A DNA stretch of 57,380 nt from a virus. Of the stretch, positions 6,447 to 42,247 are shown piece by piece. Position numbers and translations under genes: made by a program. The stretch lies in UHGV virus genome UHGV-0150885; one strand, written 5' to 3'. The first letter of the stretch is position 1. Every line of letters begins with the position of its first letter. The notes under the pieces were generated by a model that saw only the letters and a program-made list of their open reading frames with translations, was not told where the DNA came from and searched no databases.

Positions 6447-6464
6447 TATGGCGTCGCCTCCGGT

Positions 6465-7583
6465 TTACAAAATGGAATATTCAGGGTAATAAACAAAGCG
6501 CCCGATTTCCCCATAATCCGGGCTGTAAATTATCACCGCCGCCAGCCGCCGCGACCGCCAACCGCCATTCGTTGAATAAGCGTCTTTACCCGCTAACGTG
6601 CCGTGGTGCTCAACGATCCCTAATGATGTTTCTACGACAGATTGATGATGCAGATGCCCCGTGTGAGCGTAAACCGCCGCCGACTTGCCGAAGTCCTCCC
6701 GCCAGTCAGAAACACAGGCAGCTAACAAATTTTCGGGTTTTTTGATGGTGTGCCCGTGATGATAAGCAAGGAATGTTTTACCGTACTGCGTGTGGTGGAC
6801 GATAGCAGGTGATACATCAACCGTTACGCGCGGTTCATCCTCGTAAAAAGCCGCCAGCGCCGCACGTAGCCAGATCATCCCCGACTGATCGTGATTGCCG
6901 GATAACACTTGTATCTCGACGTCCTTATGGTTTAACAACATTTTCCCCACCGCACGCCGGACCGACCGGATCGCCACATAAACAAGTTTTGCGTAGCGGC
7001 TATCCTGATCAAGAATATGCCCGCTTGTCGGTGTAACCGGGATCATCCCGTCAGAGTGAAGTAGATCGCCTCCGAGAAGCAAAACAGCCTTCTCAGACGT
7101 TGGTGCAGCGCCTACCGCGTAGTCGAAGAAGTCATTTAGCACGCGTTCGGCGATCCCGGTGTCGTAGCTTTCTCCGCATTCAGCTTTATGTGCAAGCGCC
7201 CCGATATGCAGATCGAATACCGGATAAAGGGCCAGGCTTTTTTGGAAATCAATTTCCGGCACTGGCACTACCTCCGCGCGTGGTATTTCTTCCGTGAATG
7301 CGTCGCAAGCCGCTTGCGTTAGCCTTTCCATTTCCTCACGGTCACGGGCCGTTTTAATCCAGCGCATGATTACATTGCCATCCTTATCAACGAGCAATGA
7401 TTCACCGTTAACACCGAAGCCAGGAGCGCGGCGCGTGGATATTAAACCGCGCTTAGCCAGCCGTGCGCCCAGGCGTTCGACGTTGCGTTTTGCCATTCCA
7501 TATTCTTCGGCTATTTGCTTGTAAGTCTTCCCCTTGTTGTACTCAGCGATCAGTTGCTCATCGCTGATCTTTCTCTGTGACAT
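6465..7583 (-). CDS. HTH domain + calcineurin-like metallophosphoesterase protein
   Basis: 372 aa; N-term YKQIAEEYGMAKRNVERL HTH; DLHIG, GGDLLHSDG, LSGNHD, GHLHH phosphoesterase motifs. Confidence 0.7.
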   Translation of the reverse strand: MSQRKISDEQLIAEYNKGKTYKQIAEEYGMAKRNVERLGARLAKRGLISTRRAPGFGVNGESLLVDKDGNVIMRWIKTARDREEMERLTQAACDAFTEEIPRAEVVPVPEIDFQKSLALYPVFDLHIGALAHKAECGESYDTGIAERVLNDFFDYAVGAAPTSEKAVLLLGGDLLHSDGMIPVTPTSGHILDQDSRYAKLVYVAIRSVRRAVGKMLLNHKDVEIQVLSGNHDQSGMIWLRAALAAFYEDEPRVTVDVSPAIVHHTQYGKTFLAYHHGHTIKKPENLLAACVSDWREDFGKSAAVYAHTGHLHHQSVVETSLGIVEHHGTLAGKDAYSTNGGWRSRRLAAVIIYSPDYGEIGRFVYYPEYSIL

Positions 7584-18885: not shown

Positions 18886-18964
18886 TTTACAAAATGGCGT
18901 CATTGTGTGATGAGCGTCACATAATGGCGCTTTTCATCTTGTCCGGGCGTATCCATTTTGTATA
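18886..18964. promoter_or_regulatory. Regulatory region: inverted TTTACAAAATGG / CCATTTTGTATA boxes flanking a perfect CRP-consensus-like palindrome TGTGATGAGCGTCACA
   Basis: Palindrome at 18906-18921; boxes at 18886-18897 and 18953-18964. Confidence 0.4.
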
Positions 18965-18979
18965 CTGCAATCAAACGAA

Positions 18980-19013
18980 ATGCTCTTTAAAAACCTGGCC
19001 CCGCTGAAATGCG
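18980..19013 (+). promoter_or_regulatory. Second + strand nut-like site: boxA TGCTCTTTAAAAA + boxB hairpin CCGC-TGAAAT-GCGG
   Basis: Same boxA and identical loop TGAAAT as nutL; upstream of ninG-rusA-Q block. Confidence 0.5.
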
Positions 19014-19046
19014 GAAATATATCACCTGACAGAAGGAGAATAAATC

Positions 19047-19223
19047 ATGAACGATGATAGGTACGCGTGGCATGACGACTACGAGCGCGAATGCGTAATG
19101 CGGGCAATGTGCAATTTATGTAACCCCGACAAAGGAGATTGTAACGAGTGCAACAAATGCGTAGATCATTGGCTAAGGGCCGGAGCCGCCGCAAAGCCGA
19201 ACGAAATCGAATATCGAAAATAA
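19047..19223 (+). CDS. Small cysteine-rich protein (58 aa), NinF-like position
   Basis: GAAGGAG SD; CxxC pairs (CNLCNP..CNECNKC); immediately upstream of ninG. Confidence 0.45.
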   Translation: MNDDRYAWHDDYERECVMRAMCNLCNPDKGDCNECNKCVDHWLRAGAAAKPNEIEYRK

Positions 19224-19237
19224 TTGGGGTGGACTTT

Positions 19238-19843
19238 ATGCAAAACCCTAAAAAACCCATAAGACGCCGTTGCAAGTGCTGCGGCGTTTTTTTTGAGCCT
19301 AAATATCACAACCAGACGTGGTGCAGTGACGAATGCCTGGAAGAATTGAAATTTGACCAGCTATGCCGCGACCGTGAGAAGGCTATGAAGGCTATGGAAC
19401 GGAAGAAACGCCGTGATAGCCAGCGGGAAGAACGCAACCGGAAGCGTAAACAGTTAAATCCGCGTAGTTATTGGATCAAACAAGTTCAAAATGTATTCAA
19501 TGCCTATATCCGCGAACGTGATGCGCGGTTGCCGTGTATATCCTGCGGGACTTACTACGGTGAGCAATGCGGGTGGGATGCAGGCCACTACAGAACGGTT
19601 GCCGCCGCCGGACACCTTCGCTTTAACGAGGATAATTGCCATAAACAATGCAGGCACTGCAACCAGACATTAGACGGAAACATAGGAGGGTATCGCCCGG
19701 CACTGATTCGAAAAATTGGCCTCGCTAGGGTGGTAGCACTGGAGAACAACAACGATACGCATAAATGGACGATCGCAGAATGTAAGGAGTTAATAAACAT
19801 CTATCAGGCGAAATTGGACGCCTTAAGGAGAAAGGCAGCATGA
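19238..19843 (+). CDS. ninG: NinG/Rap recombination protein
   Basis: Colinear with lambda NinG (RRRCK..C..F.P....WCS.EC, PRSYWIKQ, LPCISCGT, WDAGHYRT, LRFNE, HKQC..CNQ, RWTI.ECK). Confidence 0.85.
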   Translation: MQNPKKPIRRRCKCCGVFFEPKYHNQTWCSDECLEELKFDQLCRDREKAMKAMERKKRRDSQREERNRKRKQLNPRSYWIKQVQNVFNAYIRERDARLPCISCGTYYGEQCGWDAGHYRTVAAAGHLRFNEDNCHKQCRHCNQTLDGNIGGYRPALIRKIGLARVVALENNNDTHKWTIAECKELINIYQAKLDALRRKAA

Positions 19844-20247
19844 ATGAATATACTTTTAGCCTGCCTTACCCGCCATCCAATAACCGCTATTACAGGCATT
19901 CGCGCGGTTTTCACTATATCAGCAAAGTGGGGAAGGAGTACCGGGAGCAAGTAAAAGACATTATCGAGCTATTGAATTTAAATATTAACCTATCTTGCCG
20001 ACTGGCAATCGCCATTTATGCCGCGCCGCCGGATAACCGGACCAGGGATCTCGATAATCTCCCTAAATGCCTTTTTGATAGCCTTACTTATGCCGGATTC
20101 TGGAAAGATGATGGACAAATCGACGCAATAAAAATTGTACGCTGCCGGAAGGTAAAAGGCGGGCGATTGTTTATTAAGGTACGCGAACGCGGCGACCTGC
20201 TACCGGATATTGACGAATACGCGACTAATATGTGGGGTGAGCAATGA
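19840..20247 (+). CDS. rusA: RusA Holliday-junction resolvase
   Basis: 135 aa; PPSNNRYYRH, RDLDNL.K...D.LT.AGFW.DD motifs match RusA. Confidence 0.9.
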   Translation: MNEYTFSLPYPPSNNRYYRHSRGFHYISKVGKEYREQVKDIIELLNLNINLSCRLAIAIYAAPPDNRTRDLDNLPKCLFDSLTYAGFWKDDGQIDAIKIVRCRKVKGGRLFIKVRERGDLLPDIDEYATNMWGEQ

Positions 20248-20426
20248 AAAACGAAATTAAAGATCTGCAAATAGATATTCAGCGTGAGGAACATGATTTA
20301 GAAACAATCCGACAAATCCAGGCTTTTCATATGCGCGAATTGCTTGCGCTAAAAGAGCTTGAGCGAAAGATGGTGCAATCCATTTCTGACCGTAAACACC
20401 TGGCGGCGCGTTACGGGGGTAAATAA
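20244..20426 (+). CDS. Hypothetical coiled-coil protein (60 aa)
   Basis: ORF track; coupled between rusA and Q. Confidence 0.45.
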   Translation: MKNEIKDLQIDIQREEHDLETIRQIQAFHMRELLALKELERKMVQSISDRKHLAARYGGK

Positions 20427-21148
20427 TGAATTTAGAATCCATTCTAAAATTCCACTTTCCTAAATCACCGCGATTGTCAGACGAAAGCCGGGGAACATCC
20501 CCGGATGCGCTTAATACGACGGATGCACTTACCGCCGCTGGTATGGCGCAATCGCGCGTAGAGCTTGGCTATAGCGCTTTTTTAGGGAAGATGGAACTAT
20601 CGCAAGCCGAAAAACACAAGGCCGTAGTATTGCTTACAGAGCGTTTAAGGGCTATGGCAAAAGATTACGAATACGTCATGGAGTTAAACGAGGATCAGCG
20701 CAATGGACTTATTATTCTTGTTGCCGTTTTCGCGTTTAGGGATTATTGCCAAAGCGCCGCTACGGAAAAAACTTGTATGGAGTGCGGCGGATATAAATTT
20801 ACGTTTGACGACTACGGGGAAAAACACCTTTGCAAAAAATGCAAGGGGCATGGGAAAGTTCGCAACCATTGTAAACAATGCAAAGGGCGCGGCGAGATAC
20901 CGGATAAAGCAGCCAGCAACGCGGCGGAAATGCCAGTTTTCAAAACGTGCCAGCACTGCGGCGGGCGTGGGTACTCACGTTTCCCGGTAGATCTTGTTCG
21001 GCAGGCGGTTAATCAGCTTGTTTTTCCGGTAAGCCGATCAACGTGGTGGAAAAAATATCGGGTTTTCTATGAGGACGCCATAGCGGAGCTATTCAAAGAG
21101 GAAGCCCGCGCGGAAAGCGAAATCAAGCGAGTGACACGGGGTGAATAA
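20426..21148 (+). CDS. Q: Late-gene antiterminator Q (phage 82/21 type)
   Basis: 240 aa; N-terminus LESILKFHFPKSPRLSDESRG like Q82 (LESVAKFHSPKSPMMSDSPRA); Cys-rich zinc-finger region. Confidence 0.85.
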   Translation: MNLESILKFHFPKSPRLSDESRGTSPDALNTTDALTAAGMAQSRVELGYSAFLGKMELSQAEKHKAVVLLTERLRAMAKDYEYVMELNEDQRNGLIILVAVFAFRDYCQSAATEKTCMECGGYKFTFDDYGEKHLCKKCKGHGKVRNHCKQCKGRGEIPDKAASNAAEMPVFKTCQHCGGRGYSRFPVDLVRQAVNQLVFPVSRSTWWKKYRVFYEDAIAELFKEEARAESEIKRVTRGE

Positions 21149-21348
21149 TGGATAAGCTGGAAATAAACGATCAGTTCGCTGTTATCTTGTTCGAAGATAA
21201 AACAGGCGGCGCATGGTGTAAGAAAGTCACTGGTACAGAAGCGCATTTAATTTTGAAAATAGCAAGCGCGTTACACGACGGCGAGTTACCTGCCATCCCT
21301 GTTAAGCCAGTCCATATTTACAAACGGGGTGACGATGATGAAGCCTAA
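21148..21348 (+). CDS. Hypothetical protein (66 aa)
   Basis: ORF track; first gene of tightly packed array downstream of Q. Confidence 0.45.
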   Translation: MDKLEINDQFAVILFEDKTGGAWCKKVTGTEAHLILKIASALHDGELPAIPVKPVHIYKRGDDDEA

Positions 21349-21607
21349 ATTAAAAGAACATCTTTTTGCAAAACTTGTTAATGACCTGACGTTATCAGCG
21401 CGGTTGTGTGGTGATACACAACAATTACGGGCGTGGATAGCAAGGGATTTGAAAAAATATATTGAGCCTGGCGGGCCGGGTGACGAAATGACGATGGACA
21501 AGGCCATCAAGCGCCGGACTGCTGAATGGTCAGTAAGTAATACCGGATTAACCGGATATATTGAAGGCTATAACGACTGTTTACAGGATCATAGCGATGG
21601 CAAGTAA
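21329..21607 (+). CDS. Hypothetical protein (92 aa)
   Basis: ORF track. Confidence 0.45.
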   Translation: MTMMKPKLKEHLFAKLVNDLTLSARLCGDTQQLRAWIARDLKKYIEPGGPGDEMTMDKAIKRRTAEWSVSNTGLTGYIEGYNDCLQDHSDGK

Positions 21608-21911
21608 AGATCTACATTTAAACCTGAAAGGAGAATACTTTTACGCCATCCGGGCGGGAAAGAAGGTGGAGGAATACCGGCTTTATAATGACTATTGGCG
21701 CAAGCGCCTGGAGGGGCGGGAATATGAACGCCTGATTATTAAGCTGGGGTATCCAGCCAGCCACGAAGCGCACCGGATCATAAACCTTCCTTATTTTGGG
21801 TATGAAGTGAAAATTATCACACATCCATTATTCGGCCCTGATCCGGTGAAAGTATTCGCAATTAAATGTGATGTGAATTGGATGTTAAGGTGGGGGAGCG
21901 ATGAAAAGTAA
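21597..21911 (+). CDS. Hypothetical protein, possible ASCH/PUA-like fold
   Basis: Start MASKDLHL; LKGEYFYAIRAGKKVEEYR resembles ASCH N-terminal strand pattern (weak). Confidence 0.4.
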   Translation: MASKDLHLNLKGEYFYAIRAGKKVEEYRLYNDYWRKRLEGREYERLIIKLGYPASHEAHRIINLPYFGYEVKIITHPLFGPDPVKVFAIKCDVNWMLRWGSDEK

Positions 21912-22113
21912 CCGTAAACGCCTGGTAAGGGCGTATGACAAAGCGTTAAAGGCTTTTGATGATCTGCGACACAATAAGCGCCAGCGCCGCAAGTGGGCGC
22001 GATTTTTTGTTAGTGAATGGCATGATGATGATTTCTTCCTGGAAGCGCGGCATATGACGCAGGAAGACGCCGACGCATTAGCTGATGATAACATTTACTA
22101 TATGATGTGGTGA
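21901..22113 (+). CDS. Hypothetical protein (70 aa)
   Basis: ORF track. Confidence 0.45.
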   Translation: MKSNRKRLVRAYDKALKAFDDLRHNKRQRRKWARFFVSEWHDDDFFLEARHMTQEDADALADDNIYYMMW

Positions 22114-22117
22114 TAAT

Positions 22118-22483
22118 ATGCAAATAATCATTGATTACCTTTGCCATGTATTCAATACAATTTTTGGCTTTTATCAACAACCATTTCTTAAAGAATGGGA
22201 TTCGATGCTAAACGATATTCTCGATAAAGGATTAATAATGGAGGTTGACGAGCTTACAATCAAATTTAATTATGAGGGTGAAATTTATCTAATTTGGGTC
22301 GGGAATAGATGGTATGCATACGGTCATATTTATTCAATTGGCGATAAATACATTAAAAGGGGTCAAGAATTCCGACCACGCTTCCGCACAATGCGCCGCC
22401 TGCATAACCTGCATATGAATCTCTTTGAAGACCAGGAAGCACGGGAATTATTTAAAATTTACGGAGGTAAATCATGGAGCTAA
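22118..22483 (+). CDS. Hypothetical protein (121 aa)
   Basis: ORF track. Confidence 0.45.
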   Translation: MQIIIDYLCHVFNTIFGFYQQPFLKEWDSMLNDILDKGLIMEVDELTIKFNYEGEIYLIWVGNRWYAYGHIYSIGDKYIKRGQEFRPRFRTMRRLHNLHMNLFEDQEARELFKIYGGKSWS

Positions 22484-22704
22484 AGATCTGGCGTGCTATC
22501 GACGTAGTTGACAATGAGTTAAGTATGTTTGCCACTGATGGAAAGCGCGTAGTGATCGCTACATGGACGCATAACCATGATGATATTGTTTTTCGTCGCA
22601 AAGCTGCGGAGTGGCTTTTCTCTGACGATGGCTACACGATGAACATCGCCCAGCTTGCCAGAATGAAAGATGAAATATTAACCGACAGCTACACAACTGC
22701 ATAG
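22474..22704 (+). CDS. Hypothetical protein (76 aa)
   Basis: ORF track. Confidence 0.45.
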   Translation: MELKIWRAIDVVDNELSMFATDGKRVVIATWTHNHDDIVFRRKAAEWLFSDDGYTMNIAQLARMKDEILTDSYTTA

Positions 22705-22708
22705 CGGG

Positions 22709-22948
22709 GTGAATATGCGTATCTATGAGCACAAGCGGGATAAAACCCGCTTTTTTGTTCGTGCTGGCGTGGCGTACCAGTATCACGACTGCGGGTATAT
22801 TGAGGCGCTTGCTTACGACCTGGATTTCGAGCAAGAAAAGGAGTGGTTTGATTTCAAGATTTACCGGAAGCGCAAACCGACGCACGACGAGCGCCACGCT
22901 ATCCGTGATTTTTTAATCAGCATTGACCGCTGGGAGGCAGAGGAATGA
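22709..22948 (+). CDS. Hypothetical protein (79 aa)
   Basis: ORF track. Confidence 0.45.
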   Translation: MNMRIYEHKRDKTRFFVRAGVAYQYHDCGYIEALAYDLDFEQEKEWFDFKIYRKRKPTHDERHAIRDFLISIDRWEAEE

Positions 22949-23238
22949 AAACGAAGAAAGCAGCAGATAAGAAAGCGTTGGTTATCGCCACAACGGATGT
23001 ATCGTTATTCACGAAGGGTGAAGAAATAGATCTTAAATTGCTTTTTGGTATGTTTGAACCACACGAAAAGCCGTGGTTTGTTCATGAAGATAAACAGGGA
23101 AATATGCGTGTCGTAGTGCCGGACAAAAACAGCGACATATTTTTTGCTATTCCAGATCCGTTACATGACGGTGAAATGTTGGCGGTATTGTTGATCGCTG
23201 ATGCTGTTACTTATAAGGGTAAAAAATATGAAAGTTAA
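22945..23238 (+). CDS. Hypothetical protein (97 aa)
   Basis: ORF track; overlapping stop/start. Confidence 0.45.
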   Translation: MKTKKAADKKALVIATTDVSLFTKGEEIDLKLLFGMFEPHEKPWFVHEDKQGNMRVVVPDKNSDIFFAIPDPLHDGEMLAVLLIADAVTYKGKKYES

Positions 23239-23455
23239 ATTCCTGCATGACCACGGATACCCATCATTAAAACGCGTAGTAGGGGAAGTGGTAGACGTAG
23301 TTCATTCTGATGATGTGACCTGCGTCATTATGGGTAAAGACCTCATCGCTCATGGTGCTGATGATCACTACATTAACCCGGCGTGGTCGTATACATTCAG
23401 CCTGGGGGATTTCGTAGGTGATAAGGGGCGCGGCCTGCAAGTAGTCGAGGGTTAA
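23228..23455 (+). CDS. Hypothetical protein (~75 aa)
   Basis: ORF track; start MKVKFLHD. Confidence 0.45.
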   Translation: MKVKFLHDHGYPSLKRVVGEVVDVVHSDDVTCVIMGKDLIAHGADDHYINPAWSYTFSLGDFVGDKGRGLQVVEG

Positions 23456-23459
23456 TATC

Positions 23460-23675
23460 ATGGACGTTTACGAGGATTTATACCTACAGACGAATACCCA
23501 CACCTTTTATTTTCTGAAAAACGGCGTCGTATGCCGCAGTGACGACGGGGTGATAATGAAGGAGTGGTTATTCAAGCGTAAAGACCTACTTGATGATCTG
23601 GTTTTTGCCGGGATATTCCGTAAACGTCCGGCTAACCTGGAAGAAGAAATGTTGATCGACGAGGTATTGAAATGA
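23460..23675 (+). CDS. Hypothetical protein (71 aa)
   Basis: ORF track. Confidence 0.45.
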   Translation: MDVYEDLYLQTNTHTFYFLKNGVVCRSDDGVIMKEWLFKRKDLLDDLVFAGIFRKRPANLEEEMLIDEVLK

Positions 23676-23923
23676 AAATGAAAGTGAATTATTTCAGAGC
23701 GAAAGATAAAGCAACAGGAAAGCGTGTGGCTATCCTGGTTAATGAAGCAAATTATATGTTTGTTCTCCAGCCGTGGTGCATGGCTGACTATAACGATGAT
23801 TATCGTCGTCACGCTGCGCGCGGCGCGGTCGGGATGAAAGGTTGGCAACCGCGCGACATGCTTAATTATTGCGACTGGAATCTGATAGCAAAATACACGG
23901 TCGATTATAAGGGAATATTCTGA
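23672..23923 (+). CDS. Hypothetical protein (83 aa)
   Basis: ORF track. Confidence 0.45.
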   Translation: MKMKVNYFRAKDKATGKRVAILVNEANYMFVLQPWCMADYNDDYRRHAARGAVGMKGWQPRDMLNYCDWNLIAKYTVDYKGIF

Positions 23924-24207
23924 TGGAAAGCTATTTTGATCGGATGTTTTGCCGCACAACTTGTAACGAATATAAATTTACCACGGGGCAGGCGTACACA
24001 ATTCACAGATTGCGCAATGCGACTACTGACCCGATGGTATTCGTTGCGAGTGATAACGAAGGGGTAATGTATCAGGTATTCTACTGCGGCGATCTTGATT
24101 ATGCACTGGTGAAAAACATTACCGGACAATGGTTAGCGCAATTTTCCAGATACCCGGCTGATGTTGATGTAAAAAATTATTTAAAGGTGGCTGATAATGC
24201 AGGTTAA
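23923..24207 (+). CDS. Small protein, member of tandem paralogue family (94 aa)
   Basis: Shares F-x-x-G-x-x-Y ... D-x-x-G-x-[WY]-x-[FY] pattern with next four ORFs. Confidence 0.5.
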   Translation: MESYFDRMFCRTTCNEYKFTTGQAYTIHRLRNATTDPMVFVASDNEGVMYQVFYCGDLDYALVKNITGQWLAQFSRYPADVDVKNYLKVADNAG

Positions 24208-24409
24208 ATGTTCATACTCAAGCAATGACAGCGTTTTCACGATTGGGCGAATTTATGACGTTCACATCGTTTATGGCAATGAAAATCACACAATGAATAA
24301 CTGCCTCGCCTTAATTGATAACCATGATGAGATCTGGATGTTCAGGCCAAGCTATCAGGGCGGCGAAATATCCGGCGTGGGTTTTGTTGCCAGCTTCGAA
24401 CGTTATTAA
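24197..24409 (+). CDS. Small protein, tandem paralogue family (70 aa)
   Basis: FTIGRIYDVHIVYG...IDNHDEIWMF. Confidence 0.5.
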   Translation: MQVKCSYSSNDSVFTIGRIYDVHIVYGNENHTMNNCLALIDNHDEIWMFRPSYQGGEISGVGFVASFERY

Positions 24410-24419
24410 AGGGGTAACC

Positions 24420-24671
24420 ATGAAACATTTATATTTTGAGGTAGTACAGACGCGCGATCGCGACATATTCGAAGAAGGAAAGATTTATTGCGGCGTTCAA
24501 ATCCACGGTGCACCGGGCGGTGAGGCGATGGCGATAACTGGCGATGATGATAAGGTTTATTTTGCTTATGTCACACGCTTTCCACACACTGACAAGGTTT
24601 ATTATCGCATCGTGCATGACTTCCAGGGCGTAGCTGTATTTTGTGACCGCGAAGGCAGTAAACCGGAATAG
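24420..24671 (+). CDS. Small protein, tandem paralogue family (~83 aa)
   Basis: FEEGKIYCGVQIHG...ITGDDDKVYFAY; AAAGGGG SD. Confidence 0.5.
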   Translation: MKHLYFEVVQTRDRDIFEEGKIYCGVQIHGAPGGEAMAITGDDDKVYFAYVTRFPHTDKVYYRIVHDFQGVAVFCDREGSKPE

Positions 24672-24680
24672 GTGGTTGTT

Positions 24681-24920
24681 ATGAGTCGGAATCACAGGTA
24701 TCAATGCACGTATTCACGATGCAGCGCGTTTTTTAAGAATGGCAAGATCTACGAAGTCAGCGCGGCATTGGTTGACGCGAAGGATCAGGAATATATCCAC
24801 GCCATTACTGACGACCAGGGCCAGCTATGGCGCTTTTATAAGATGGGGTGTGGCACGGCGCTTGTTTATGCGCGTACTGGTGGCGGCGCTTTTGCTGCAT
24901 TTTCGTATGTGGGGGTATGA
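24681..24920 (+). CDS. Small protein, tandem paralogue family (~79 aa)
   Basis: FKNGKIYEVSAALV...ITDDQGQLWRFY. Confidence 0.5.
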   Translation: MSRNHRYQCTYSRCSAFFKNGKIYEVSAALVDAKDQEYIHAITDDQGQLWRFYKMGCGTALVYARTGGGAFAAFSYVGV

Positions 24921-24922
24921 TA

Positions 24923-25141
24923 ATGACTATTTTAACGTGTCACGGATCTGATCTTGATTGTTTCGAGGACGGTTGCCAGTACGAAGCGGAAAAGCCAGGC
25001 GGATTACCGAAAAATCCGTTTTTAGTCGTCACAGATGCTTACGGTCACTTATGGTATGCAGCGCCCAGCAAGGCGCGTGGCTGGTGGCTGATTCAGAATG
25101 ACGATCGCGCGGTTGTAGTGGCCTTTAAGCAGGATGAATAA
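24923..25141 (+). CDS. Small protein, tandem paralogue family (~72 aa)
   Basis: FEDGCQYEAEKPG...VTDAYGHLWYA. Confidence 0.5.
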   Translation: MTILTCHGSDLDCFEDGCQYEAEKPGGLPKNPFLVVTDAYGHLWYAAPSKARGWWLIQNDDRAVVVAFKQDE

Positions 25142-25163
25142 AAGCGTGATCTACCCCGCAAAG

Positions 25164-25206
25164 TTTACAAAATGGCATTGTTCCGGCAGTGCCGTTTTGT
25201 TATATA
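25164..25206 (+). promoter_or_regulatory. Candidate late promoter PR' (TTTACAAAATGG box, -35 TTGTTC, 17 bp, -10 TATATA)
   Basis: Promoter-like hexamers about 175 bp upstream of tR'-like terminator and lysis genes. Confidence 0.45.
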
Positions 25207-25380
25207 TAAGTCAAGGAAAGACGGAAGGGGAGATAAGAAAATGAAACGCGAATATGTAAACACCATCAAAGGCATCGAAGCGGACCTGGCGCAAGGTTGG
25301 TGATTTGTAGCTATAAGCCGTGTTTGTATAGGTTAAACAAACGGATTAAAATATTTCCTAACAATGCGAAATTGTATTCA

Positions 25381-25405
25381 CCCGGCCCCGCGCCGGGTTT
25401 TTGCT
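25381..25405 (+). terminator. Rho-independent terminator (tR'-like) just upstream of holin
   Basis: CCCGGC-CCCGC-GCCGGG hairpin followed by TTTTTGCTTTG. Confidence 0.65.
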
Positions 25406-25420
25406 TTGTTGGGGGAATAA

Positions 25421-25633
25421 ATGATCGCCACGTTAATTACGCGAACAAGGGAGGCCGCAAGCTATGTAGCTGGTATTCTGACAACCATAATTGGCGGTTT
25501 ATCCCTGAATGACATAGCCGTGATAGTTGGTATCGGGTGCACGATAGGCACTTTCGCGGTTAACTGGTATTACAAGCGACAGGAGAATAAGCGGGAGCAG
25601 GAAAGGCACAACCTGGAGATGAAAAAATTATGA
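25421..25633 (+). CDS. Holin (two-TM, pinholin-like)
   Basis: 70 aa; two hydrophobic helices, charged C-tail; ATGA overlap with endolysin. Confidence 0.7.
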
Positions 25634-38979: not shown

Positions 38980-39021
38980 TATACAAAATGGAGTCGGTAA
39001 AGTAAAGCCATTTTGTATAAA
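38980..39021. promoter_or_regulatory. Palindromic divergent promoter unit: TATACAAAATGG -16- CCATTTTGTATA, with TATAAA/TATAAG -10 hexamers in both orientations
   Basis: Perfect 12-bp inverted repeat; each box sits 24 nt upstream of a -10-like hexamer on its strand. Confidence 0.45.
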
Positions 39022-42205: not shown

Positions 42206-42247
42206 ATATACATCTTGTTGCGTCCTGTGTGAAGCCATTTTGTAAAC
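42206..42247 (-). promoter_or_regulatory. Candidate promoter for reverse cassette 2 (TTTACAAAATGG box, 24 nt, -10 TATATA)
   Basis: Same box-to--10 spacing as the other promoter-family members. Confidence 0.45.

Follow-up and report, generated by a model that had tools for sequence, protein, structure and literature searches.

Wide separation of a Q-lambda-type antiterminator gene from its probable late promoter in the virus genome UHGV-0150885

Background

The Q antiterminator genes of the lambdoid phages are textbook units in which a regulator gene adjoins its site of action, and the Q cassette has been described with the Q gene next to the PR' transcription unit (PMC9388147). In a 57,380-nucleotide stretch of the virus genome UHGV-0150885, which belongs to an E. 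coli prophage and is hereafter called the window, the Q gene (20426-21148) is not immediately followed by PR'; 4198 bp and 16 small genes lie between its stop codon and the -10 hexamer of what is probably the late promoter. The phage group to which the window belongs is common in the human gut and keeps Q 2-7 kb away from its probable target. A first-pass annotation had already placed a Q gene in the interval 20426-25405 and had reported a distance of about 4 kb with a small-gene array in between, and both observations are borne out here. The layout is a variant of the known Q-lambda-type system, and what is new is the separation of Q from the promoter; a literature search found no paper that discusses a Q-distant layout, the genomes themselves being public and Q being annotated in some of them. 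Positions are those of the window, and features lie on the plus strand unless stated otherwise.

The plan of the late promoter can be read in lambda, P22, SEN22, S149, Brookers, mEp237, Erwinia phage 49 (Ehr49) and a Klebsiella phage, in which a -10 hexamer is followed after 4-7 nt by an element of the form (T/C)AA(C/T)(G/A)NT and then by a terminator 30-70 nt from the start of transcription, the whole lying directly after Q. The unit of lambda reads TAAATT TGACTC AACGAT GGG and that of SEN22 TAATAT CATTTC TAACAGT AGAAAT; in P22 the promoter, a qut-like site, the start and the terminator are annotated, with 30 nt from start to terminator. For comparison we used 67 diverse IMG/VR loci, whose Q proteins are 35-41% identical to that of the window, together with a detector that requires a -10 hexamer, N4-7, AACNNT and a terminator within 130 nt. 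In every one of the 67 loci the unit of promoter, pause element and terminator begins 13-80 nt downstream of the Q stop codon, so that the first-pass annotation was right to regard closeness of the late promoter to Q as the usual lambdoid arrangement. The detector located the unit at 13-65 nt in 50 of the loci, and in the remaining 17, which have CAATGAT-type elements or hairpins outside its limits, the unit was confirmed by reading the sequence. When a looser regular expression was run over the 160 nt that follow the Q stop, 58 of the 67 loci showed the pause element at 37-78 nt, and the other nine were read directly.

The Q gene and its product

The Q gene of the window encodes a protein of 240 amino acids (aa) which, judged by its alignments, is a genuine homologue of Q-lambda. 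It matches the Pfam family PF03589 (Antitermination protein Q; E=1e-28, with a score of 99.8 bits where the cut-off is 26.7), phrog_127 (E=2e-77) and the solved Q-lambda chain 7ubm_Q (E=6e-37). Residues 1-113 align to Q-lambda without a gap and the C-terminal helix-turn-helix (HTH) body aligns as well, and the alignment thus recovers the torus-forming segment, the zinc-ribbon arm and the HTH body; in Q-lambda it is the N-terminal segment (residues 1-44) that refolds into a torus at the RNA exit channel, the roles of the segments being those given in PMC9388147. In an alignment of this protein with eight family members, M1, L3, E4, K8, K13, G39, M40 and Q42 are invariant, as are C149, C152, C175 and C178, the four zinc cysteines, which are kept in all eight members. 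The zinc-ribbon arm is enlarged by an insertion of about 33 residues that bears two extra CxxC pairs, making four such pairs in all, and gives a sub-threshold match to the Pfam family DnaJ_CXXCXGXG. Insertions of this kind are common among members of the Q family, of which lambda Q is the minimal form.

Genes for NinG and RusA lie upstream of Q, and the Q stop codon overlaps the ATG of the next gene (GAATAATGG). Close relatives carry two alleles of Q, of 240 and 242 aa, which are more than 90% identical outside the arm. The alleles diverge almost wholly at window positions 20768-20870 (residues ~115-148), in the first zinc-knuckle part of the arm, where TMEGYKFTFDDYGE--KHL in one stands against VPKGHGHLPNPYCKYTSTI in the other.

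A proposed promoter, pause element and terminator upstream of the holin gene

The gap between the end of the small-gene array and the holin gene is 279 bp long and holds two separate modules, of which the one nearer the holin gene (Module B, 25315-25408) has the plan of a Q-family late promoter. The proposed promoter PR' (25324-25352) consists of a -35-like TTGTAT (25324-25329), a 17-nt spacer and the -10 hexamer TAAAAT (25347-25352). Within the spacer lies a conserved AAACAAAC block (25335-25342), a candidate Q-binding element, and 6 nt after the -10 stands the -10-like element TAACAAT (25359-25365), at which sigma-dependent pausing is predicted from the family plan. The whole reads TAAAAT ATTTCC TAACAAT GCGAAAT, with a predicted start of transcription at about 25359-25361. 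An intrinsic terminator, tR', lies between this promoter and the late genes: ACCCGGC-CCCGC-GCCGGGT followed by TTTTGCTTTG (25380-25408, by terminator scan and folding), with a stem of 7 bp, six of them GC, at 25380-25398, a T run, and a fold of -20.5 kcal/mol (z=-3.4), 15 nt upstream of the holin start. The homologous terminator of phage mEp021, t5, which stands in front of the holin gene, is listed as experimentally demonstrated (PMC11893012). The unmodified transcript would probably end there as a leader of about 45 nt, and such a length is normal for the Q-lambda family, since only 30 nt separate start and terminator in P22.

Over both strands of the whole 57-kb window the detector gives a single hit, at 25347, as compared to 0.13 in shuffled sequences; none lies near Q, and in particular no promoter and terminator unit was detected directly after it. 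The suggestion of the first-pass annotation that a second Q target might be found elsewhere thus receives no support. Of the late unit which that annotation proposed, the terminator stands; its promoter (25164-25206) lies some 180 bases upstream of the likely one, and the leader of about 200 nt that it implied gives way to the short leader from a start near 25360. A 22-mer spanning the -10 and pause region is unique in the window (0 expected). Module B occurs as a single copy directly upstream of the holin gene in all 51 relatives whose sequences reach that far. Its core is near-invariant among 34 variants, reading AAACAAa.aGATTAAAATAtT.cCTAACAATGCGAAA, then the hairpin, then TTTTTG; within it AAACAAa.aGATTAAAAT is near-invariant (a few positions being conserved in >=80%), TAACAAT is invariant in all relatives, and the sequence to the left of the core falls into unrelated types.

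Immediately downstream begins the lysis cassette (25421-26579), with genes for the holin (25421-25633; PF16080, E=1e-18), the endolysin (25630-26121; PF00959, E=2e-43) and the Rz spanin (26097-26579; PF03245, E=3e-24). A BoxB-like hairpin in the leader, ACAAT-GCGAA-ATTGT, was considered and rejected, as T-to-C/G and G-to-A variants break its stem without compensation in many relatives. No Rfam RNA family was matched at E<=1 in the interval 19000-28500, and no tRNA was found in the window.

Related phages and the age of the separation

The region is ~85% identical to the corresponding region of the E. coli phages MagusPhagus, mEp010, mEp013, mEp044, mEp554, mEp021 and mEp515, and relatives of the window include phages of the mEpimmI group, which have been described as using an N-like early antitermination with three nut sites (PMC11893012); neither Q nor the late promoter is analysed in that work. 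IMG/VR contributes 46 further loci with 85-100% identity in Q, of which one is identical to the window, and the gene is carried by 35 complete E. coli genomes. Q is retained in all of more than 50 relatives. The first-pass annotation had proposed comparing the spacing in related prophages: Q lies 1.9-6.7 kb from the unit in the 51 close relatives (mEpimmI phages) in which both ends are present. Measured from the Q stop to the -10 in 33 loci, the distance has a median of ~5.7 kb, with 1927 bp in mEp021, 4198 bp in the window and 6725 bp at most.

A protein search recovered more distant Q relatives at 77%, 50% and 46% identity. Their contigs keep the same order of NinG, RusA, a 61-aa gene and Q, with the Q stop overlapping the next ATG, and the small genes after Q span 3.1-6.5 kb up to the holin gene on contigs long enough to include it; the contig of the 46% relative stops 2.8 kb after Q, still within the array. 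In the clade with the 50% identical Q (hereafter the sister clade), the gap before the holin gene holds AAACAATATCGGG TATAAT TCCCT CAATAAT GGC, 17 nt, and AAGGCTGG-AATTGTT-CCGGCCTT TATTTTTTT, 3.1 kb after Q. This unit, with its AAACAA block and consensus TATAAT, has the same plan as that of the window and a different sequence and hairpin; read in this way, it is a real phylogenetic footprint and not the trace of shared recent ancestry. In Citrobacter, a locus whose Q is 40% identical is arranged in the usual way, and its lysis genes follow Q at a distance of 530 bp.

The small-gene array between Q and the holin gene

The array (21148-25141), defined from open reading frames (ORFs) and their translations, consists of 16 small genes of 66-121 aa that overlap or sit no more than 10 nt apart, and it runs without a gap from the Q stop to 25141. 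There is no space for promoters or terminators between its genes, and promoter-like matches in the region stand at chance level (15 found, 17.2 expected); on these grounds Q and the array would be co-transcribed, most likely as the far end of an N-dependent early right operon. A PHROG scan of all 16 ORFs gave matches to families of unknown function, a Pfam scan of 13 of the 16 gave none, and no ORF is assigned a function.

Conservation along the array is uneven. The parts at 22474-22948 and 23228-23923 are present in 47 of 47 relatives, and the part at 23900-25300 in merely 4-21 of the 47. Five array genes have homologues, 33-47% identical and in the same order, in the sister clade, from which it follows that the array is not a recent insertion in this prophage; that the array lies between Q and its target, as the first-pass annotation held, is upheld, and insertion as a recent event is not. 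Judged from this synteny of at least five intervening genes across both clades, the separation of Q from its target is old and stable, and the array has to all appearances been a part-core, part-hypervariable block between the two since before the clades split.

The last five ORFs (23923-25141), which lie in the most variable part of the array, resemble distant paralogues of one another: they have in common a pattern C...F..G..Y... followed by D..G..W, and the ORFs at 24197 and 24681, which both match phrog_31142, match each other at E=3e-4 in a tiny database. The core gene at 23460-23675 is a 92% identical homologue of mEp021 gp41, which is annotated as a virion structural protein and was detected by mass spectrometry in purified virions (PMC11893012), an odd result for a gene upstream of the late promoter. 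In more distant relatives the slot between Q and the promoter holds a Lar restriction-alleviation gene (L145, 9188-9415), a gene for a HAD/PNKP-like phosphatase (L141, 11533-12072) or a PAPS-reductase-like gene (L146, 14058-14813), all of which would fit early roles in counter-defence or host takeover.

A model of the late switch

The family membership of Q, the layout, the conservation and the match to the promoters of the family together make it likely that Module B (25324-25365 with the terminator) is the late promoter unit on which Q acts in trans, about 4.2 kb from its gene; promoter activity, pausing, the Q-binding site and the dependence on Q are here predictions made from the sequence. 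On this view the window has a late switch of the usual Q-lambda type, with its two halves moved away from each other. Polymerase that starts at the early right promoter would be made resistant to termination by an N-like protein at nut sites and would transcribe ninG, rusA and Q and then, unbroken, the 16 small genes. Polymerase starting at ~25360 from the -10 TAAAAT would pause with sigma-70 on TAACAAT and, without Q, would stop at the terminator at 25380-25408 to yield an RNA of ~45 nt. Q made 4.2 kb upstream would bind beside the paused polymerase, probably at the AAACAAAC block, and the Q-loaded enzyme would pass the terminator and go on to transcribe the genes for the holin, endolysin, spanin, terminase and virion.

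The early part of this scheme finds a counterpart in the window, where a boxA/boxB-like site (TGCTCTTTAA ... CCGCTGAAATGCGG, 18981-19016) lies upstream of ninF-ninG-rusA-Q. Its position agrees with that of nutR2 as given in PMC11893012. The t4 hairpin (18896-18931, 16-bp stem) precedes the boxA-like TGCTCTTTAA, and the boxB-like stem-loop has an A-rich loop; the site at the nutR2 position thus lies downstream of t4, the terminator that it would help to overcome.

The upstream module

The element that the first-pass annotation took for the late promoter, with TTTACA (25164-25169) as its -35 and TATATA (25201-25206) as its -10, belongs to the other module of the gap (Module A, ~25145-25215). The two hexamers are 31 bp apart, and TTTACA flanks, and is overlapped by, a hairpin (25167-25200, by RNA folding) that is followed by a U-rich tract and resembles a terminator. 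With a stem of 15 bp this hairpin folds at -22.6 kcal/mol (z=-4.2, as compared to z=-1.2 on the opposite strand), and its 13 variants agree in the stem and differ in the loop. In mEp010, mEp044 and mEp554 the element is annotated, in the middle of the array, as a rho-independent terminator (ARNold). No -10-like pause element follows its -10, and a sigma-70 promoter scan does not include the site at 25164-25206 among its matches.

Module A is present in about three quarters of the relatives, in which genes and a distance of 1.5-2.5 kb separate it from the holin-proximal module downstream, and is missing from 14 of 53 related loci compared, mEp021 included. Its closeness to the terminator in the window is secondary, because a block of genes of ~1.8 kb is missing here: in L014, L038, L048 and L010 the sequences that align with window positions 25100-25245 and 25286-25422 lie ~1.8 kb from each other, and alignment to relatives places a 20-codon ORF (25241-25303) where that length of their array genes is absent. 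The ORF looks like a fusion remnant: its start matches the gene that comes first after Module A in relatives, and its end matches the 3' end of their last array gene.

A possible sigma-70 promoter can be read within Module A at 25178-25206, where TTGTTC is followed after 17 nt by TATATA preceded by TGT, and the module may hold a real promoter, which by its sequence would be independent of Q. The 13-mer TTTACAAAATGGC, allowing at most one mismatch, occurs five times in the window as compared to 0.24 expected, at 6464-6476, 18886-18898 and 25164-25176 on the plus strand and at 39007-39019 and 42234-42246 on the minus strand. The two minus-strand copies lie upstream of small genes in the tail region, and at these two and at 25164 a -35-like hexamer comes right after the 13-mer and TATA(T/A)A stands 30-31 nt after TTTACA. 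At the same three places a purine-rich leader and then a small gene follow TATA(T/A)A, and the copy at 18886 flanks the t4 hairpin. Q-independent (moron-type) promoters may have the 13-mer in common as an upstream element. Its likeness to the -35 region of SEN22-type late promoters (TTTACAAAGTGGC) had suggested a late-promoter relic, a reading that was rejected in favour of a recurrent phage element because the 13-mer also flanks the t4 terminator and two minus-strand promoter regions. In some relatives a perfect palindrome of the CRP consensus, TGTGATCTnTATCACA, lies upstream of Module A (L007, 6075-6095; L006, 6877-6897), centred at about -60.5 from the putative Module A start; its counterpart in the window (25145-25163, CGTGATCTACCCCGCA) is degenerate. 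We regard 25164-25206 as a separate module that combines a hairpin terminator with a possible Q-independent promoter and that in relatives heads a further block of array genes.

Weighing the explanations

Several observations weigh against Module B as a late promoter, and most of them concern its -35 region. TTGTAT matches the consensus at only three of six positions and is not conserved; 12 of the 51 relatives (the T2 type) have nothing resembling a -35, with the unrelated sequence ATAATCGCGCAT in its place; the sister clade is likewise without one; and all 67 comparison promoters have a -35 hexamer of TTGACT, TTTACA or TTGCAA type. There is no TG extension before the -10, and the consensus promoter scan does not list the PR' site. 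The Q-binding element is a guess, the AAACAA block being a candidate, and Q alleles do not co-vary with the type of sequence upstream of the promoter, each of the two arm alleles (240 and 242 aa) being found with both types. Conservation among close relatives (Q 85-100% identical) is weak evidence, because the whole region is ~85-95% identical. It is possible, if unlikely, that PR' truly lacks a -35 and that Q or another AAACAA-binding factor is needed for initiation too, or that the polymerase onto which Q loads is sigma-bound and comes from the 14-kb early operon; in the latter case early and late genes would be expressed as one unbroken transcription unit with one switch site.

Another reading does away with a dedicated late promoter: polymerase from the early operon or from Module A would rebind or retain sigma at TAAAAT/TAACAAT, Q would engage it there, and the site would be a read-through switch ending one long operon. 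Neither clade has a conserved -35, the unit stands at the very end of a co-directional transcription unit of ~14 kb, and E. coli is known to show sigma-dependent pausing at sites remote from promoters, all of which speaks for such a scheme. Yet the -10 hexamers are good ones, TAAAAT here and the consensus TATAAT in the sister clade, and their spacing to the pause element is exactly that of the promoter-proximal units of the 67 comparison loci; moreover N-modified polymerase would pass the terminator regardless, and retention of sigma over kilobases is inefficient, so that we hold this reading to be very unlikely. Less likely still is the unit of the first-pass annotation, with a Q-responsive promoter at 25164-25206 and a leader of ~200 nt ending at 25381-25405. 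TTGTTC-17-TGt-TATATA could be a real promoter, TTTACAAAATGGC is common to two minus-strand small-gene promoter regions, and in the window any transcript from Module A must cross the pause element and the terminator 170 bp downstream. Against it stand the 31-bp spacing, with TTTACA caught up in a strong hairpin, the lack of a pause element after the -10, and the position of the module, which is dispensed with in 14 of 53 loci, lies 1.5-2.5 kb from the terminator module elsewhere, and is close to it here through the absence of the 1.8-kb block.

The usual adjacency would be restored if the late promoter lay within or just after the 3' end of Q, so that the array belonged to the late operon and the terminator at 25380 were an internal attenuator read through by Q-modified polymerase, and the detection in purified virions of mEp021 gp41, the homologue of window 23460-23675, would then be readily understood. 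However, the overlap of the Q stop with the next ATG leaves no intergenic space, the detector finds no unit of -10, pause element and terminator in 20426-25140, promoter-like matches do not exceed chance (15 against 17.2), and a conserved pause-type unit is found at the position of 25347 in every relative; we consider such a promoter highly improbable. Finally, the terminator at 25380 might merely end the early operon, the late genes being turned on through N-type read-through or by another factor and Q having a different target or none. The three-nut-site N system of these phages is unusual (PMC11893012), and N-modified polymerase reaches this terminator, but Q is intact, with conserved residues in its torus-forming segments, and is kept in all of more than 50 relatives, and the invariant TAACAAT would be left without a role. 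This we regard as the least credible of the explanations, and Module B as the site of Q action in trans is the one that we prefer.

A further Q-type unit about 1.4 kb downstream, after Rz (TAAAAT-TCTGG-AAACGGT), was also tried and rejected: the detector fired there in most relatives and not in the window, its AACGGT lies inside a hairpin stem, and matches to the motif alone are common (14 per strand). At the corresponding place in the window (26738-26850), TATAAAATTCTGGAAACGGT is followed by two long-loop hairpins with T runs, an arrangement that loosely fits -10/N6/AACGGT and is conserved in relatives. It is probably a chance resemblance together with ordinary terminators, the alternative being a second Q-loading site before the terminase genes.

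Comparison with known systems

That Q persists 2-7 kb away from its target, with a partly conserved, partly hypervariable block in between, suggests that adjacency is not required. Older genetic work reportedly found lambda Q to act preferentially in cis. For annotation, late promoters are better sought by the signature of -10, pause element and terminator than by proximity to Q.

The locus shares with the Q/PR'/Q-binding element (QBE)/pause/tR' cassette of lambda a homologous Q, a -10 followed after 6 nt by a -10-like pause element, and an intrinsic terminator before the lysis genes. It differs in that Q is 4.2 kb from the promoter rather than ~80 bp, the leader is ~45 nt rather than 194 nt, no -35 is conserved and no TTGACT-like element lies beside the pause site, the arm of Q is enlarged by the two extra CxxC pairs, and the spacer sequence, the candidate Q-binding site, is unrelated. 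The gene 23/P-late/t-late system of P22 is closer in its short terminated leader. The SEN22-type relatives are closer in the enlarged arm of their Q and in a unit, TAATAT-CATTTC-TAACAGT-AGAAAT, that can be set beside TAAAAT-ATTTCC-TAACAAT-GCGAAAT here; in both P22 and the SEN22 type, unlike here, 40-70 nt separate the Q stop from the start of the unit, a TTTACA or TTGACT -35 is clearly present, and their Q proteins are 33-37% identical to that of the window (tblastn).

Stx-converting and other lambdoid prophages also have kilobases of accessory genes between Q and the holin gene, which lie downstream of PR' and tR' and are hence Q-dependent late genes. In the window the terminator ends 15 nt before the holin gene and the whole array lies upstream of the promoter unit, so that this is not a late-operon moron arrangement of the Stx style; the layout predicts early, Q-independent expression of the array genes, in contrast to that of the accessory genes of the Stx type. 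In the telomere phages N15, PY54 and phiKO2, q belongs to a cro-q operon in the immunity region (PMC4488713); they resemble the window only in that their putative Q gene lies away from the late genes and by implication acts in trans at a distance, and differ from it in genome plan.

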